A stretch of DNA of 64,000 bases from a virus (Duplodnaviria; Heunggongvirae; Uroviricota; Caudoviricetes), in the IMG/VR virus record IMGVR_UViG_2718218168_000001, positions 1 to 64,000 of that record. One strand, written 5' to 3'. The notes beneath the pieces were generated by a model. It was not told the DNA's origin, made no database searches, and saw nothing but the letters and a program-made list of their open reading frames with translations. A program made the translations under genes and the position numbers. Positions 26,804 through 35,416 of this stretch are shown here, piece by piece (within the stretch, counting starts at the first letter, position 1; the number at the start of each line of letters is the position of its first letter).

Positions 26804-26820
26804 ATATTTATTAGTGCATG
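26804..26820 (-). promoter_or_regulatory. weak C1 operator-like site
   Basis: atatttattagtgcatg, 13/17 to the reverse-complement consensus; overlaps the ref stop, upstream of mat. Confidence 0.3.
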
Positions 26821-27371
26821 ATGTTTGCCATTTCATAGGCGTCAGCCAGCAACTCCATCTCTGACTTGTTCAGCAAGGTGAATTCTTTCTTGCCTCCAAC
26901 CACACCATCGGCATGAACAGGGACCAGCCAGGGGTATTTTTCTCTTACTTCAGCCGGTGCTGCATGCTGGTGGTGCCATCTACAAAGTGGCAATTGCTTT
27001 TTGTGACAACCAGGCGCGGTACGACCGGAGATATGGTGCAGAGACACCTCTTCAGATATTACTCCATGCATATAGCAGGCAATGCAGGGGAGAGCGCCAA
27101 GAGCATTGGCTATGCGCCGTTCCTCCGCCGTCGGTGTTCGTCCCTTCAAGTCACGAGATTTTATTTTTACCGCGCTTTTCCGCGTTTTGCTGGCTGGTGG
27201 GCGCTCTTTCTGTTTAGCGATACGGCGATCGATAGTATTCCGCATTTTCTGATATTGAGATTCTCGCCAGGCCGGATCAGCCAACTTCTCCCGTTGCCGA
27301 GCGATCGCTCGTTCTCTGGCTGCCTTCTGCCACTTGCGGCACTGTTCAATTTTTTGTTCGATTGTTTTCAT
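26811..27371 (-). CDS. ref: Ref recombination enhancement HNH endonuclease
   Basis: 186 aa; N-terminal Lys/Arg-rich region and C-terminal HNH-type motif (CYMHG...HHISG...CHKKQ); C1 operators upstream. Confidence 0.85.
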   Translation of the reverse strand: MKTIEQKIEQCRKWQKAARERAIARQREKLADPAWRESQYQKMRNTIDRRIAKQKERPPASKTRKSAVKIKSRDLKGRTPTAEERRIANALGALPCIACYMHGVISEEVSLHHISGRTAPGCHKKQLPLCRWHHQHAAPAEVREKYPWLVPVHADGVVGGKKEFTLLNKSEMELLADAYEMANIMH

Positions 27372-27376
27372 ATGGC

Positions 27377-27400
27377 AAAAAAAAGCGGCCTAATGGCCGC
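27377..27400 (-). terminator. terminator-like hairpin in the ref leader
   Basis: on the minus strand GCGGCC-AUUA-GGCCGC followed by U8, ending 6 nt before the ref ATG. Confidence 0.5.
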
Positions 27401-27979: not shown

Positions 27980-29011
27980 CTAATCACCATCTTCCAGCAG
28001 GCGCACCATTGCCCCCGTTTCACTATCCAGATTACGGATATAGTTCATGACAATATTTACGTTGGTCCAGCCACCAGCTTGCATGATCTCCGGTATTGAA
28101 ACTCCGGCGCGGGCCATATCTCGCGCGGCTCCGACACGGGCACTGTGTCCAGACCAGGCAAGGTACCTCTGGCCAGAGTCATCCTTAGCCCCGTAAATCA
28201 ATCGGTGAGTTGCTTCAAAAATCCCTTCCAGGGCGCGAGTTGATAGCTGGCTGGTGGCAGATGGCGCGGCAACACCATTTTTTCTGACACGGCAAAACAA
28301 GTAGTTATTCGGATCATCAGCCACACCAGAGACAGTAATCCATCGCTCAACCAGTTTAGTTACCCCCAGACTAAGTGCCTTCTCTACACCAGCGGTGCTA
28401 ACCAGCGTTTTCGTTCTGCCAATATGGATTAACATTCTCCCACCGTCAGTACGTGAGATATCTTTAACTCTGATCCTAGAAATTTCGGCTATACGTAACA
28501 GGGTGTTATAAGCAATCCCCAGAAATGCCAGATTACGTATATCCTGGCAGCGATCGCTATTTTCCATGAGTGAACGAACCAGGTCGAAATCAGTGCGTTC
28601 GAACGCCAGCGCCTGTTTTGCACGCTCACCGGCATCAACGTTTTCTTTTCGGATCCGTCGCATGACCAGTGAAACAGCATTGCTGTCACTTGGTCGTGGC
28701 AGCCCGGACCGACGATGAAGCATGTTTAGCTGGCCCAAATGTTGCTGGATAGTTTTTACTGCCAGACCGCGCGCCTGAAGATATAGAAGATAATCGCGAA
28801 CATCTTCAGGTTTTGCGGGAAACCATTTCCGGTTATTCAACTTGCACCATGCCGCCCACGACCGGCAAACGGACAGAAGCATTTTCCAGGTATGCTCAGA
28901 AAACGCATGGCGATCCCTGAACATATCCATCAGGTTCTTGCGAACCTCATCACTCGTTGCATCGACCGGTAATGCAGGCAAATTTTGGTGTACGGTCAGT
29001 AAATTGGACAT
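27980..29011 (-). CDS. cre: Cre tyrosine recombinase
   Basis: 343 aa; translation MSNLLTVHQNLPALPVDATSDEVRKNLMDMFRD... recognised as P1 Cre; loxP lies about 420 bp upstream. Confidence 0.98.
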   Translation of the reverse strand: MSNLLTVHQNLPALPVDATSDEVRKNLMDMFRDRHAFSEHTWKMLLSVCRSWAAWCKLNNRKWFPAKPEDVRDYLLYLQARGLAVKTIQQHLGQLNMLHRRSGLPRPSDSNAVSLVMRRIRKENVDAGERAKQALAFERTDFDLVRSLMENSDRCQDIRNLAFLGIAYNTLLRIAEISRIRVKDISRTDGGRMLIHIGRTKTLVSTAGVEKALSLGVTKLVERWITVSGVADDPNNYLFCRVRKNGVAAPSATSQLSTRALEGIFEATHRLIYGAKDDSGQRYLAWSGHSARVGAARDMARAGVSIPEIMQAGGWTNVNIVMNYIRNLDSETGAMVRLLEDGD

Positions 29012-30164: not shown

Positions 30165-31016
30165 ATGATAAATTATGTCTACGGCGAACAACTGTACCAG
30201 GAGTTCGTCAGCTTCAGGGATCTCTTTCTAAAAAAAGCTGTTGCACGCGCCCAACACGTTGATACAGCCAGCGACGGTCGTCCTGTACGCCCGGTTGTCG
30301 TTCTACCGTTCAAAGAAACTGACAGCATTCAGGCTGAAATTGATAAATGGACTTTAATGGCGCGGGAACTGGAACAGTACCCAGACCTCAATATCCCAAA
30401 GACTATTTTATATCCAGTGCCTAACATCCTTCGCGGTGTGCGCAAGGTTACAACTTATCAGACAGAAGCTGTGAACAGCGTCAACATGACCGCTGGCCGC
30501 ATTATTCATCTGATTGATAAGGACATTCGCATCCAAAAAAGCGCGGGGATCAATGAGCACAGTGCGAAATACATAGAGAACCTGGAAGCAACAAAAGAGC
30601 TAATGAGGCAGTACCCGGAGGATGAAAAATTCCGTATGCGCGTACACGGCTTTAGCGAAACAATGCTGCGCGTCCACTACATTTCCAGTAGCCCTAACTA
30701 CAATGATGGTAAATCAGTTAGTTACCATGTGCCACTGTGTGGCGTGTTTATCTGCGATGAAACTCTCCGTGATGGAATTATCATCAACGGTGAATTCGAA
30801 AAAGCAAAATTTAGCCTTTATGACTCCATAGAACCGATCATCTGCGACCGCTGGCCGCAAGCAAAAATATATCGCCTGGCAGATATTGAAAATGTAAAAA
30901 AACAAATTGCCATCACTCGCGAAGAGAAAAAGGTTAAGTCAGCCGCATCAGTTACGCGCAGCCGTAAAACCAAGAAGGGGCAGCCAGTAAACGACAACCC
31001 CGAAAGCGCGCAATAA
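30165..31016 (+). CDS. c1: C1 repressor of lytic functions
   Basis: 283 aa, the size of P1 C1; immediately downstream of coi; cognate 17-bp operators throughout the window. Confidence 0.88.
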   Translation: MINYVYGEQLYQEFVSFRDLFLKKAVARAQHVDTASDGRPVRPVVVLPFKETDSIQAEIDKWTLMARELEQYPDLNIPKTILYPVPNILRGVRKVTTYQTEAVNSVNMTAGRIIHLIDKDIRIQKSAGINEHSAKYIENLEATKELMRQYPEDEKFRMRVHGFSETMLRVHYISSSPNYNDGKSVSYHVPLCGVFICDETLRDGIIINGEFEKAKFSLYDSIEPIICDRWPQAKIYRLADIENVKKQIAITREEKKVKSAASVTRSRKTKKGQPVNDNPESAQ

Positions 31017-31021
31017 ATTAT

Positions 31022-31039
31022 GCCCGGCATCAACCGGGC
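31022..31039. terminator. terminator hairpin between convergent c1 and ant-like gene
   Basis: gcccgg-catcaa-ccgggc hairpin followed by a U-rich tract on the plus strand. Confidence 0.55.
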
Positions 31040-31048
31040 ATTCTTCCA

Positions 31049-32161
31049 TTATTCAGCTGCCACCGGTTTTAACAAGCCAGCATCGAGCAGTTTACGCGTC
31101 AACCACTGCTGGCCTTTACCCGTTAATTGAGGCGTCAACCGTATCTGGTAGCCATCTTCATCATCCAGCACCACTTCTTTCACCGTGAAATACCCCGCGT
31201 TGATGTACTGCTGGAACGGCACATTTTTACGTCCACCGGACGCTATCAGGATGCCGTTCTCCCGTAACCAGGCAAACAGCGCGTTTTGCTTAAGTCCAAC
31301 AACCTTTGCAAAATTCCCAATCAGGATCCCTTTAGCTACTGATACCCGGTCGGCAAAATCGACCTTAGGAGCGGCGGCCACCAGCTGCTGATTTAGCTGG
31401 TGGGCTTTCTGTTCCAGAAGCTGCTTTTGTTCAGCCAGTTCGGCAGCCAGGCGTAGGGCTTCTGGTAATGTTTGGGGGATTGCAACCGGTTGCTGTTCTT
31501 TTTGCCGGAAGTAGCTGTCTTCCAGTTTTTCAAAGAATGCCCATGCTTCATTTGTGTCCACGATCTTAGACATGCGTGCAGCGCCGCGCTCTGTCCAGAG
31601 TGTAAGGCTTCTGGCGTTCTTACCAACAGAGTAACTTCCGGTTACTCTGTTCTTAAATTCTCTTAATTTTAAACCAGTTAGAAGAAAGTAATGCTTACCT
31701 TCTTCAAAGCGGTCAAGGTTGCGAGACAAATTGTTGCGAATATTGGCTTCATCGACCCCATACCCTCTAGCAAGAGTTTCGGTTGTCACGACACGTACTC
31801 CCTGCCATTCCAGAACGGGAATTTCATCCGGCTGATTCTGAACAACCACCAGTTCCGATTCCTGAACTGAAGGTGCATAAATTTTTTCTGATTTAACGTT
31901 AGTTGCTTTCATTCTGTGTGCCTCCTTGCGTGCTTCGGCTGCGACGGTTGCGTAATTCAGATGACCCTGTTCGAGCAGGTATTCACGGATATCGGTTAGC
32001 AGAATGCGGTGAACTGCGTGTTTGTCCTTTCTCCGGTAAAGTTGTTTGGTGATCATGAAGTAGTTGGCAATAACGCCCGGTATATCCCTGGTACTGATAC
32101 AGGCAGTGTGCTGTTCAATTGCCTCGATCATCTCTTCACGGGTGACTAATGACGTTCTCAT
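31049..32161 (-). CDS. antirepressor-like protein (Bro-N/AntA-like N-terminal region, KilA-C-like C-terminal domain)
   Basis: 370 aa; central region (VLEWQGVRVVTTETLARGYGVDEANIRNNL...) and C-terminus (VPFQQYINAGYFTVKEV) resemble phage antirepressor domains as I recall them. Confidence 0.7.
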   Translation of the reverse strand: MRTSLVTREEMIEAIEQHTACISTRDIPGVIANYFMITKQLYRRKDKHAVHRILLTDIREYLLEQGHLNYATVAAEARKEAHRMKATNVKSEKIYAPSVQESELVVVQNQPDEIPVLEWQGVRVVTTETLARGYGVDEANIRNNLSRNLDRFEEGKHYFLLTGLKLREFKNRVTGSYSVGKNARSLTLWTERGAARMSKIVDTNEAWAFFEKLEDSYFRQKEQQPVAIPQTLPEALRLAAELAEQKQLLEQKAHQLNQQLVAAAPKVDFADRVSVAKGILIGNFAKVVGLKQNALFAWLRENGILIASGGRKNVPFQQYINAGYFTVKEVVLDDEDGYQIRLTPQLTGKGQQWLTRKLLDAGLLKPVAAE

Positions 32162-32379
32162 AGTCCCTCCTGAGCAGAAGCGTTAACAGGGAGGCACCAG
32201 TAACTGAGAGAATTGCGCGAATCGGTAGAAAAGCGGGCAGAGAAAATACAGGGAGCATCCGGAAGCTGAGAACGTGCCTCATCTTCTGTCGGTGCAATAA
32301 CGAAGTGATAGTGACGTTTTTGGCAGGAGTAAAAGCGCCAGATAAATTCAGAATGAGCAGGGGTAGGGATAGTAGCCAC
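32158..32379 (-). CDS. Icd-like small protein translationally coupled to the antirepressor
   Basis: 73 codons starting at GTG with an AAGGAGG Shine-Dalgarno 8 nt upstream; its stop overlaps the ant-like start codon (ATGA); P1 icd is recalled as 73 codons. Confidence 0.5.
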   Translation of the reverse strand: MATIPTPAHSEFIWRFYSCQKRHYHFVIAPTEDEARSQLPDAPCIFSARFSTDSRNSLSYWCLPVNASAQEGL

Positions 32380-32563
32380 AATGGCAGCCTCCTTTTGCTA
32401 ATTTAAGGAGCTACCGCGTGAGGTCTCAATCTCAATGGCGGTAGCACTGACTGGGTTGAGACTACCGGCGCAAAAGGGAACCGGCCTGCCTTTCGGCAGC
32501 CCAGCCAGCACTACCATTGATCTCTGAGCTAAACGCTACGTATGGCTGTGCGATGGCATGACA

Positions 32564-32697
32564 CAAAAAAAGACGCTTTTGGCGTCTGTGTCGCCTTTTG
32601 CATTATCCGGGGTCTCAATCCCGGCACCCGTTTTAATGAGGTGCCTGATAAGCATAAACCGAAAATGCCACAAGGCGCAAGAGGTCAGGTTCAATGT
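32564..32697 (-). ncRNA. candidate c4-like antisense regulatory RNA
   Basis: promoter-like sequence overlapping the C1 operator; about 130 nt to a minus-strand terminator (AGACGC-CAAAA-GCGUCU + U7 at 32564-32587); hairpin loop AUUGAGAC complementary to a GUCUCAA loop in the icd-like leader. Confidence 0.4.
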
Positions 32698-32718
32698 AAC
32701 ATCGGTAGCTAAAAAACA

Positions 32719-32735
32719 CAATTTATTAGAGCAAA
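32719..32735 (-). promoter_or_regulatory. C1 operator upstream of the immI-like module
   Basis: caatttattagagcaaa, 15/17 to the reverse-complement consensus; just downstream of the pacB stop. Confidence 0.65.
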
Positions 32736-32738
32736 TAT

Positions 32739-34223
32739 TCATTCATTAAGCCATGCCAGAGCTTCATCAACCTGCGCTTCGTCTTCGACGCTAAGCACTT
32801 CATCCTGGGGAACATAATCCGCCAGCATAGCGAAACAATATGTATCCCAATGGTCTGGTGAGTGCAGGTTGAGTTTTTTCTTCATATCCTCCTTACTCAT
32901 CACCTTCCATTGACCTGCGGAGTTAATCCCTACAGGGATTTTCGACGCTTCCTCAATAGTTTCATTACCCTTATCCAGTCTCATACGACCAGATTTTACG
33001 GCCTCTGCGGCTTGAACATTGGCATAAGCACGTTTATCAAAGTACAGGCTCTTATCTTCACGGCTATGCATCTTTTTACCCCAGCGTATACGCTGTACGG
33101 TAATACCATAATACTCGTACATCAGATCCGCCGTTGCTTTACCCAGGCCATCGCCGTCTATCGCTATGGTGATATTGGGGAATCGCTCAGGATTACATTC
33201 TGCGAAAATTTTGGCGGCAAGCTGCGTTTCTGTAACGTCTGTGTATTCCAGCATTCGATAGTTGATTACACGGCGTTTATTTCGCTGGCCGGACACCATC
33301 ATGATATTGATAACGGACTTATCCCGTCCCGTACCACCAGCAACGTCCACACATGCAAGCCAGCCCCATCCTTTGGCAATCTTGACTTTCCGCCGCGTTG
33401 CACGTTCAACCTCATCACGTCCAAGAAGGAAGCCATCCTGTGATTTAGGGAATAGGCCGCGTACCTTAATCATGTACATAGGGTTATCACGCCCGCCGTA
33501 CTCCGCCAGCTTCATTTTGATAAATGCTGGCGTTACCAACGGTGATTCCTCACTGTTAAGCGTGATCGCCGTATAAACGCCATCAGGGTTACCAGGACGC
33601 TTGGCCAGTTTATGGTGTGTATCGTAGAAATAGCCGCTTGGGCGTGTAGGCTGTGACAGCAATAAGATGCGGTTATCCTGTCCGGTAAGAGCACCGGTGA
33701 TGATACCGAAAGCTCTATCACTGACACCGGAGGCTTCATCGATAATATACAGAAGATGATCTGCGTGTTCACCGGCGAGAGCTTCTTCACTTCCCAGACG
33801 AAAGCCCTTCGGTACTACAGTCCATACACCTTTACCAGTAATCTCATAGAAAGCGGTTTCTGTCAGAACAAAATAATCAGCAAGCCATGGGAAACGGCTG
33901 GTGGCAGTAGCCCAGTTTATCTTGATGTACTTGAATATACCGGTCATTACCTGCTGAATTTTGTTCGCAACGATAATGGCACGGGCACCTGGATACATGA
34001 TTATGAACAACATGATCATGATAGAAGTCATGTCTGATTTCCCGGTACCGTGACCAGACGAAACAGATGTCTTGCTACCCTGTTCCTGCACAGACTCAAT
34101 AATCAGATCCTGCTGCCAGGTAGGTGTTTTGCCGAACAAAACATCAGCGGCAGCAATCCAGTCATAACGATATAGCGCCACCAGCTCGCGCCAACGTGGA
34201 TCCGTTACGCAACTTCTGGCCAT
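32739..34223 (-). CDS. pacB: terminase large subunit PacB
   Basis: 494 aa; Walker A-like GHGTGKS and terminase nuclease-type C-terminal half; overlaps the pacA stop. Confidence 0.88.
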
Positions 34224-35416
34224 TAATCATCATCCCCGTATAGCTTGCGGGTAACTTCTTCGTCTTCCTCCTCGTCTTCGTCCAGGTCTTGTTCCAGCCA
34301 TGGGTCGTTTGATACACCTTCAGTATCAACATCTCCATAACCGCCTGTATCAACGATATCGGCGATTTCTTCCCTACGCTGCTCAATCCACAATGCGGCA
34401 TCGGCGCGGCGGTTGGCGGCCCGTTCTCGCGCAACTTTGTCCAGATCTTCAAGAGAAGGACCACCGACGGCAGTTTGCCTTTCCTCATCATCGGTATTGG
34501 TCTTAGGAGCACGCAGATCGGCTTTGATTTGCTCCAGCATCAGGGGCGGCACTTTCCCGCCATGCGCCTCGATAAATTCAGCTGCTTCCAGCACTGACCA
34601 GTTATTTTCACGCTTTCGTTCGTATGCCAGCTTAACAATGCCAGCTTGCCCCATAGACAAAGCGTGCTTTTCCGCCTCCCGGCTTTCTTTTCGATAGTTA
34701 TTCCGGATGCTGTAAATGGTGTTGATCAGACTGCTTATCTGCGCGGAACAGCTGTTTAGCATGCTCGCGATACGGTATTCAGGCGGAGTACCTTCATCAT
34801 CGGCTTTTTGCTGATCGCGCATTTCCTGCACCAGGCGAATACACGTATCCCTGGCGTTCTCCAGCATAAGGAGATGAGAAAGAGACTTTTCCAGAAGAGT
34901 GGTTTCCAGAACATCGGCCCCGGACCGACGCAACATAGCGCGCGCGGCCTTCCGCGCTTCAACGTTATCTATCAGGTAATCGCCAGCTTCGAATTCAAAG
35001 CGTTCACCATCATCATCCAGGGTGTCGCGTTCCAGGCGATCACGCAAGGTCCGGTGGGCACGGGTGATCACGTCATGATCATCAGAACGATCATTTATGC
35101 GCTTATTTTGGCGCTTCGCATTCTCGACTGCGACACTGACAATGGCATTAACCCTTTGTTTTTCTGCTATTTCAGCCGCAATGTGATCACCGGAATGTTG
35201 ATCATTAGAGTGATCAATGATCATGCTTTTTAGTGGCTTCCTGACTGGCTTATTTGGCTTGCGGCTGTCCGTAGTCCTGGTGTCTTCTTTGAAGGCACGG
35301 AGATAACGACGTGCGGTATTAGGGTTAAGATTAAACTCGGCGGCATACTGTGCGATGGTGTAACCACCATCTCGCGCCAGGCGAGCAAAATTCTTCTTGT
35401 GATCGTCCCAGGTCAC
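34223..35416 (-). CDS. pacA: terminase small subunit PacA (contains pac)
   Basis: 397 aa, the size of P1 PacA; N-terminal helix-turn-helix-like region; the pac hexamer cluster lies within its 5' portion. Confidence 0.88.
35065..35223. promoter_or_regulatory. pac packaging site (GATC-containing hexamer repeats)
   Basis: seven TGATCA/TGATCG hexamers, three at 35065-35093 and four at 35184-35223, flanking a roughly 90-bp cleavage region; the P1 pac architecture. Confidence 0.85.

Follow-up and report, generated by a model that had tools for sequence, protein, structure and literature searches.

In bacteriophage P1, RNase P reportedly cuts the C4 RNA from the transcript of the immI operon. According to the same body of work, by Citron, Biere, Riedel, Heinrich, Hartmann and Schuster between 1990 and 1995, C4 is said to pair with the a2 and b2 sites and thereby to stop translation of icd; ant expression reportedly needs icd translation, and the proteins Ant1 and Ant2 are said to inactivate C1. 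In P1 and P7, immI (Op51, P51a/P51b, a1b1, c4, a2b2, icd, ant1/ant2) lies between sim and kilA-repL. Here, we describe a locus of the same kind between pacB and c1 in a 64,000-nucleotide stretch of viral DNA (IMG/VR record IMGVR_UViG_2718218168_000001, positions 1 to 64,000; hereafter, the window), which holds a P1-like phage-plasmid in the orientation opposite to the P1 map. With a probability of roughly 0.75, this locus is a second, complete immI-type operon (c4-icd-ant) with the RNA specificity of phage D6.

The module resembles P1 and P7 immI in the order of its parts, in the placement of a C1 operator over a putative upstream promoter, in the C4 fold, in two-site recognition and in the position of b2 over the icd Shine-Dalgarno sequence. 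It further shares the ATGA overlap of icd and ant, a putative nested Ant2 start and the KilAC C-terminus of the antirepressor. These parts and their order support the proposal, made in a preliminary description of this DNA, of a P1 c4-icd-ant-type module under a C1 operator. In contrast to immI, the module is convergent with c1, and neither kilA nor repL follows it. Its recognition code is UUGAGAC/GCAAAAG, as opposed to UUGACAG/GUUAGUG in P1 and GAUUGUG in the P7 type. Its a1b1 element is of the IsrK type and has an intrinsic terminator, of which the same scan found none upstream of P1 c4. The middle of its Ant protein is an ORF6N domain, unlike that of P1 Ant.

Three other described systems share parts of this design. 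Phage D6 (MF356679) has an immI-like region (orf83, icd; orf82, anti-repressor) with about 95% DNA identity to the module from the IsrK element through C4 and the leader to the start of icd, and its a and b codes are identical. However, the D6 locus lacks a P1-type C1 operator and upstream promoter, its antirepressor is an unrelated Rha-type protein, and its genomic neighbors also differ. The isrK-orf45-anrP locus of the Salmonella prophage Gifsy-1 is alike in its 5′ IsrK-family RNA with a Rho-independent terminator, in a stable read-through RNA complementary to IsrK and in a small open reading frame (ORF) coupled to the antirepressor. There, the short, terminated IsrK trans-activates the downstream antirepressor, and its sequence complements that of STnc1160, a stable RNA that also lies downstream (PMC4825925). 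The coupled ORF is orf45 in Gifsy-1 and icd in the module, which makes the two analogous; the 39-codon ORF on the C4 gene ends before the icd Shine-Dalgarno sequence. The C1 operator is a further difference from Gifsy-1. Finally, P4 immunity (CI RNA, seqA/seqC), to go by its published description, is alike in that a processed small RNA pairs with sites upstream and downstream on its own transcript, although P4 has neither icd nor ant. Hershko-Shalev et al. describe P4 seqA as a structural homologue of IsrK and state that CI causes premature transcription termination of the replication genes (PMC4825925).

In the P1 reference, the stop codons of pacB and c1 are 24 bp apart, in line with the map given in the preliminary description. 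In the window, approximately 1.7 kb stands in place of this spacer, and the comparison with P1 at this junction showed the segment to be absent there. The insert is limited by the pacB stop codon at one end and by a hairpin (31020-31041) at the other. Phages P7 and phiW39 align with the query via the c1 and pacB flanks only, and P7 is without the insert. Over positions 30900-32900, Escherichia phage JL22 (ON018986.2) and several E. coli plasmids show 100% identity to the window.

RNAs of the insert and their covarying codes

Two segments of the insert match known RNA families (Table 1). The upstream one, a 79-nt element, is a full-length match to RF01394 isrK (59 bits versus a gathering score of 50) and is laid out as hairpin 1, hairpin 2, the single-stranded b1 site and the intrinsic terminator. 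A terminated antisense RNA of about 130 nt had been proposed at this place; the terminator was found, but the element is of the IsrK type and not an antisense regulator. The second segment is a full-length match to the C4 antisense RNA family, RF01695 (75 bits versus a gathering score of 45, E = 8e-13). Its fold has a minimum free energy of −46.4 kcal/mol and a z-score of −5.6, with 0 of 200 shuffles as stable. Its architecture is that of P1 C4, in which a long closing stem encloses two hairpins.

The C4 recognition sites a′ and b′ were assigned by analogy with the annotated P1 sites. Exact 7/7 complements of both occur twice, once in the upstream IsrK-type element (a1/b1) and once in the icd leader (a2/b2). 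The duplex of b′ with its cognate leader has an energy of −12.4 kcal/mol, as opposed to −6.1 to −7.2 kcal/mol for this b′ on four other leaders. The unprocessed transcript is predicted to fold with a′ and b′ paired in cis with a1 and b1.

To follow these sites across relatives, 79 IMG/VR loci collected with an Icd protein query were combined with the window, P1, the canonical JL22 locus, D6, RCS47 and 673R5, giving 85 sources. Sites were extracted with wildcard patterns specific to each scaffold, without complementarity being required, and 82 of the 85 sources could be parsed. The parts of the module are identified, ordered and complementary as described above, and across these relatives they covary. 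The 82 loci fall into 13 specificity types, made up of five a alleles and eight b alleles. In all 13, a1, a′ and a2 vary jointly, and b1, b′ and b2 do likewise. Each of the pairs a1:a′, a2:a′, b1:b′ and b2:b′ forms 7/7 contiguous base pairs in every type, with non-cognate combinations reaching at most 5. The b′ duplex matrix is diagonal (cognate, −11.7 to −13.9 kcal/mol; non-cognate, −2.5 to −10.0 kcal/mol). Five types occur at the pacB-c1 site alone. Four of these pair each of two a alleles (UUGAGAC and UUGGAAC) with each of two b alleles (GCAAAAG and GUCAAAG); the fifth, the 673R5 type, is built on another C4 scaffold and carries UUGGCCU and GUCUAAG. Such joint and repeated change at three places of one transcript is what would be expected of a working antisense circuit selected for new specificities, and it argues strongly for one here.

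The genome of JL22 also contains a canonical immI at 43.4-46.7 kb, consisting of c4-a1b1 (RF03163), C4, icd, ant1, kilA and repL; the corresponding position would lie beyond the 64-kb window. The canonical C4 of JL22 combines a P1-type a′ (CUGUCAA) with a P7-type b′ (CACAAUC), each with matching targets. When the two JL22 modules are cross-paired, the b′ duplexes amount to about −5.5 to −6.1 kcal/mol. Given these energies and the mismatch between the pacB-c1 code and the canonical, P7-type C4, the two circuits would be expected to operate independently and without cross-talk. The preliminary description had left the choice between a relocated and an additional module. The presence of both copies in JL22 rules out relocation of immI and leaves the module as an additional one.

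The C4 gene also bears on protein annotation. In identical plasmids, PGAP calls a 39-aa 'ash family protein' at 32398-32517 (-). This ORF lies wholly on the gene for the C4 RNA and stops shortly before the icd Shine-Dalgarno sequence. A scan against NCBIfam gave no match at E <= 0.01, and the ORF matches PHROG 6928, 'transcriptional repressor', at 3e-9. The annotated protein is probably the C4 RNA gene read as protein. As a counterweight, translation has been reported for orf45 of Gifsy-1, an ORF that overlaps the equivalent RNA. A second ORF, of 68 aa (32536-32742; JL22 gp120), spans the promoter and IsrK region; it has no family match and overlaps the promoter and RNAs, and was for these reasons treated as spurious.

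Operator, promoters and protein-coding genes

The C1 operator claimed for the insert was confirmed. It shares 15 of 17 positions with the consensus ATTGCTCTAATAAATTT, begins 4 bases past the final base of the pacB stop codon and aligns with P1 Oc4/Op51. Operator-like sites number 15 in the window, compared with 0.42 expected by chance. Among 41 related pacB-c1 loci, 32 have the exact 15-nt core of the operator, and the five exceptions listed have single-base variants. No C1 operator was found in the 24-bp pacB-c1 spacer of P1, and the operator must therefore have come with the insert. The 15 operator-like sites are spread over 9616-63849, and a site with perfect consensus (59288-59304) overlaps another on the opposite strand (59277-59293).

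The segment containing the operator and the upstream promoter-like site aligns with P1 Op51/P51a, and the tandem-promoter region as a whole aligns with Op51/P51a/P51b. By positional homology in this alignment, the upstream site would be the counterpart of the C1-controlled P1 promoter P51a (P2c4/P51a) and the downstream site that of P51b. The −10 element of the downstream site ends 7 nt ahead of the 5′ end of the isrK Rfam match (32644), and D6 has TTGCGC and TATATT at the same place. A further promoter-like site is present in the icd leader (32400-32429, minus strand; TTGAGA, 18 nt, TAAATT; 9/12), where it overlaps a2. It may be due to chance, since the region holds three such sites against 1.7 expected.

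Both protein assignments of the preliminary description were upheld. The 73-codon ORF with a GTG start is icd-like (NF033153, 2.4e-13), and its product is 81% identical to P1 Icd across 63 aligned residues; relatives have ATG at the same position. The start of the 370-aa Ant-like protein (PF03374; PHROG 63, 'anti-repressor Ant', 1e-135) overlaps the icd TGA as ATGA. The protein is a mosaic. Its overall identity to P1 Ant1 is 57%, with about 60% across the N-terminal ~85 aa and about 93% across the C-terminal ~140 aa. The part between them is an ORF6N domain (PF10543), which Pfam does not find in P1 Ant. In the JL22 record, icd is annotated in the wrong frame (gp121, an 81-aa ORF with a TTG start, 32136-32381), and Ant is labelled 'roi / DNA binding protein'. 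Since gp121 is another frame of the icd stretch, it was treated as spurious.

All parts of the module are on the minus strand, with ant convergent with c1. The hairpin that limits the insert lies inside the 32 bp separating the c1 stop (31016) from the ant stop (31049). It is probably a bidirectional terminator for ant and c1. Rfam also reports three tRNA genes in the window (56756-56828, 58472-58544 and 58550-58622, minus strand), and the scores of the two adjacent ones equal those of the tRNA-Asn and tRNA-Thr annotated in JL22.

Table 1 Features of the pacB-c1 module and neighboring genes, in window coordinates.
Feature	Position	Strand	Remark
cre	27980-29011	-	gene of the window
c1	30165-31016	+	gene of the window
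Hairpin ATGCCCGG-TTGA-TGCCGGGCAT	31020..31041		terminator-like site on minus strand (scan)
ant1-like antirepressor gene, 370 aa	31049..32161	-	KilAC domain PF03374, 1.5e-31
Putative Ant2-like internal start, M84	ATG 31910-31912	-	AAGGAGG just before; aligns with P1 Ant2 start
icd-like gene, 73 codons, GTG start	32158..32379	-	NF033153 phage_ICD_like, 2.4e-13
icd leader with C4 targets	32388..32436	-	exact 7-nt complements of a′ and b′
icd Shine-Dalgarno AAGGAGG	32388-32394	-	predicted within local hairpin
b2 GCAAAAG	32392-32398	-	overlaps icd Shine-Dalgarno
a2 UUGAGAC	32423-32429	-	partial copy AUUGAGA just before
C4 antisense RNA gene	32434..32521	-	RF01695, full-length match
a′ GUCUCAA	32456-32462	-	single-stranded C4 bridge
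b′ CUUUUGC	32470-32476	-	loop of C4 hairpin 2
IsrK-type leader RNA	32564..32644	-	Rfam RF01394 isrK match 32566-32644
Intrinsic terminator	stem 32571-32587, then U-tract	-	terminator scan
b1 GCAAAAG	32595-32601	-	single-stranded
a1 UUGAGAC	32612-32618	-	loop of hairpin 2
Downstream promoter-like site, -35 TTGCGC, 18 nt, -10 TATGCT	32651..32680	-	positional homology
Upstream promoter-like site, -35 TTGTGT, 17 nt, -10 TACATT	32693..32721	-	-35 overlaps operator
C1 operator TTTGCTCTAATAAATTG	32719..32735	-	15/17 match to consensus
pacB	32739-34223	-	gene of the window
pacA	34223-35416	-	gene of the window

Proposed mechanism and competing explanations

The module is real and probably functional, and a mechanism can be proposed for it in which promoter use, RNA processing, the termination step, the binding of C1 by Ant and the decoy role are carried over from the work on P1 and Gifsy-1. 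Minus-strand transcription would begin at two tandem promoters, the upstream one overlapped by the C1 operator and hence under C1 control, and the downstream one providing a constitutive supply of C4. The 5′ part of the transcript would contain the IsrK-type element with a1 and b1 and would end at the intrinsic terminator. C4 would be present on read-through transcripts and, by analogy with P1, would be excised by RNase P. Its loop b′ and bridge a′ would then pair with b2 and a2 in the icd leader, and icd would go untranslated because b2 covers its Shine-Dalgarno sequence. Since ant is proposed to be translationally coupled to icd, it would be neither translated nor fully transcribed, as in P1. 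Where C4 is lacking or is outnumbered, the cell would make Icd as well as Ant1/Ant2, and Ant would inactivate C1. The triggers would be entry into a cell whose resident element makes another C4, or activation of the upstream promoter through a loss of C1. As a decoy, the short a1b1 RNA may in addition titrate C4. If the codes of the two circuits are independent, a carrier would therefore have a wider prophage immunity and could override more resident prophages.

Several observations weigh against this reading of the insert as a second immI-type operon. The promoter-like sequence singled out in the preliminary description has positional homology with P1 P51a and P51b in its favor, but it is weak: a promoter scan of the region called neither site, and each matches 7 of 12 consensus positions. 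The upstream element reaches 22.3 bits with RF03163 (c4-a1b1; gathering score, 46.7), a sub-threshold score that does not support membership in that family, although it has the same two-hairpin layout and its a1 and b1 sites are present and covary. Short a′ duplex energies separate cognate from non-cognate leaders poorly because duplexfold took alternative G-U-rich registers, and reliance was therefore placed on direct complementarity and the b′ matrix. Finally, the middle third of Ant, an ORF6N domain, is unlike P1 Ant and varies among relatives (DNA identity to the window, 72-100%), and for this reason the target of Ant could differ from C1. Ant may have a different repressor as its target, for instance one made by a co-resident prophage, or may play another DNA-binding role, as the 'Roi' label in JL22 suggests. 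Such a role would fit the ORF6N middle, for which Pfam gives no match in P1 Ant, and the variability of this segment, and cross-prophage antirepressors are known in Salmonella (PMC3121763). Against it, identity to P1 Ant is about 93% over the C-terminal ~140 residues and about 60% over the N-terminal part specific to Ant1, the operon has a C1 operator and adjoins c1, and near-identical icd-ant genes are also found under P1-type C4 scaffolds in relatives. We therefore consider a target other than C1 unlikely. That the module is a decaying, non-functional immI duplicate left by recombination, as the GTG start of icd (ATG in relatives) and the weak promoters might indicate, is scarcely credible: both ORFs are intact, the module is kept in hundreds of plasmids, and complementarity is perfect at four site pairs in 13 of 13 types, joint changes that decay would not keep.

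The remaining explanations concern the roles of the two RNAs. The preliminary description took the upstream terminated RNA for a trans-acting antisense repressor and the GGUAG...CUACC hairpin for a passive leader target by the icd ribosome-binding site. The loop AUUGAGAC and its complement GUCUCAA are both in the sequence and truly complementary, and an upstream RNA with its own terminator makes a discrete small RNA plausible. However, the supposed target hairpin is C4 itself, given its full-length RF01695 match (75 bits), its z-score of −5.6 and its P1 C4 fold, and a repressor role is established for P1 C4. Moreover, GUCUCAA does not adjoin the icd Shine-Dalgarno sequence but lies about 60 nt upstream of it; a2 and b2, which had gone unnoticed, are nearer. 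The GCAAAAGG that overlaps the Shine-Dalgarno sequence complements the C4 loop and not the upstream RNA, which has GCAAAAGG too, and the Gifsy-1 homologue IsrK activates rather than represses. The Rfam matches and the comparison with P1 thus indicate that regulator and target had been reversed, the a1:a′ pairing having been read backwards, and the original assignment is very improbable. A more serious alternative is a positive switch of the Gifsy-1 type, in which the IsrK-like RNA, accumulating on some signal, is the main regulator and turns icd-ant translation on by titrating C4, by refolding the read-through mRNA or by both, with C4 secondary. The above-threshold isrK match, the terminator that the same scan does not find upstream of P1 c4 and the experimentally shown trans-activation by IsrK in Gifsy-1 (PMC4825925) are consistent with it. 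So is the predicted cis pairing of a1/b1 with a′/b′, which resembles the inactive structure A of PMC4825925. This switch is compatible with the C4-centered mechanism and differs from it in emphasis only, and the three-way covariation fits both equally. Still, the module has an icd gene and a Shine-Dalgarno-overlapping b2 just as P1 does, and for P1 the established mode is repression by C4; we regard a leading role for the IsrK-like RNA as possible but somewhat doubtful.

Occurrence and biological meaning

The preliminary description implied that the insert is rare, which is not the case. RCS47 has it, annotated as 'ant', as do at least 285 PLSDB plasmids with a window-like insert (301 have at least 80% of the RNA region), compared with an empty P1-type junction in 314 of the 702 PLSDB plasmids that match the P1 junction. 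The insert is thus present in about half of the sequenced P1-like plasmids. The insertion site and gene order are the same in RCS47, pTZ20_1P and other P1-like plasmids. RCS47, with 96% DNA identity, differs in its b allele (GUCAAAG/CUUUGAC), and vB_EcoM-673R5 differs in having another C4 scaffold with both a and b changed.

Much of the module is already known. PGAP annotates Ant and an 'Icd-like protein' at this insert, both RNAs match existing Rfam families, and the parts and their logic are as in P1, D6 and Gifsy-1. Venturini et al. (2019) mention 'two short hypothetical orfs and ant inserted between pacB and c1' and do not discuss the RNAs (PMC6906374). In the searchable literature, the D6 genome paper (Gilcrease and Casjens 2018) excepted, this one sentence is the only mention of the insert, and the same literature gave no account of C4 or IsrK RNAs there, of a second heteroimmune immI or of the combinatorics of its alleles.

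Some relatives carry a further c4-icd-ant cassette near cre, with a P1-type C4 scaffold and other b alleles (L071-L087; for example, L080, 2083-3758). It is absent in the window, where about 560 bp (26819-27378) occupy the place. Three IMG/VR contigs have the near-cre cassette at a distance of about 6 kb from the one between pacB and c1, and one contig has three icd matches (L011, L077 and L081). Two other loci (L031 and L037) have an IsrK/D6-type scaffold (UUGGAAC/GCAAAAG) directly upstream of a kilA-repL that is 99% identical to P1. Because this is the canonical immI position, it follows that RNA scaffolds are exchanged between sites. In L067, a natural deletion joins internal pacB coding sequence to the icd b2/Shine-Dalgarno region and takes out the pacB 3′ end, the operator, IsrK and C4; L067 is presumably a defective prophage with unregulated icd-ant.

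A broader picture is offered tentatively, and we hold it to be possible more than probable. P1-like elements may carry up to three interchangeable c4-icd-ant cassettes (immI, pacB-c1 and near cre) whose two-part RNA codes recombine freely, and the set of cassettes might govern tolerance, exclusion and induction of other P1-like elements, an RNA-barcoded compatibility under diversifying selection. The terminated IsrK-like RNA might be a C4 decoy raised on loss of C1, and read-through beyond the shared hairpin into the convergent c1 could sharpen the switch further. The population-level aspect, with several independent, recombining RNA codes over up to three sites per element, may be of interest in itself. 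The naturally covarying C4 and target codes are also a source of mutually independent antisense-RNA switches, and what has been annotated here as an 'ash family protein' is very probably the gene of the C4 RNA.

P1 serves as the model plasmid prophage, and extended-spectrum β-lactamase (ESBL) genes are now being spread by P1-like elements: JL22 carries CTX-M-55, and RCS47 was reportedly published as a carrier of SHV-2. The P1 reference map is without the second antirepressor circuit and independent RNA code that roughly half of its sequenced relatives carry. If this circuit works, it should influence the coexistence of P1-like plasmids, their mutual induction and the stability of resistance carriers.

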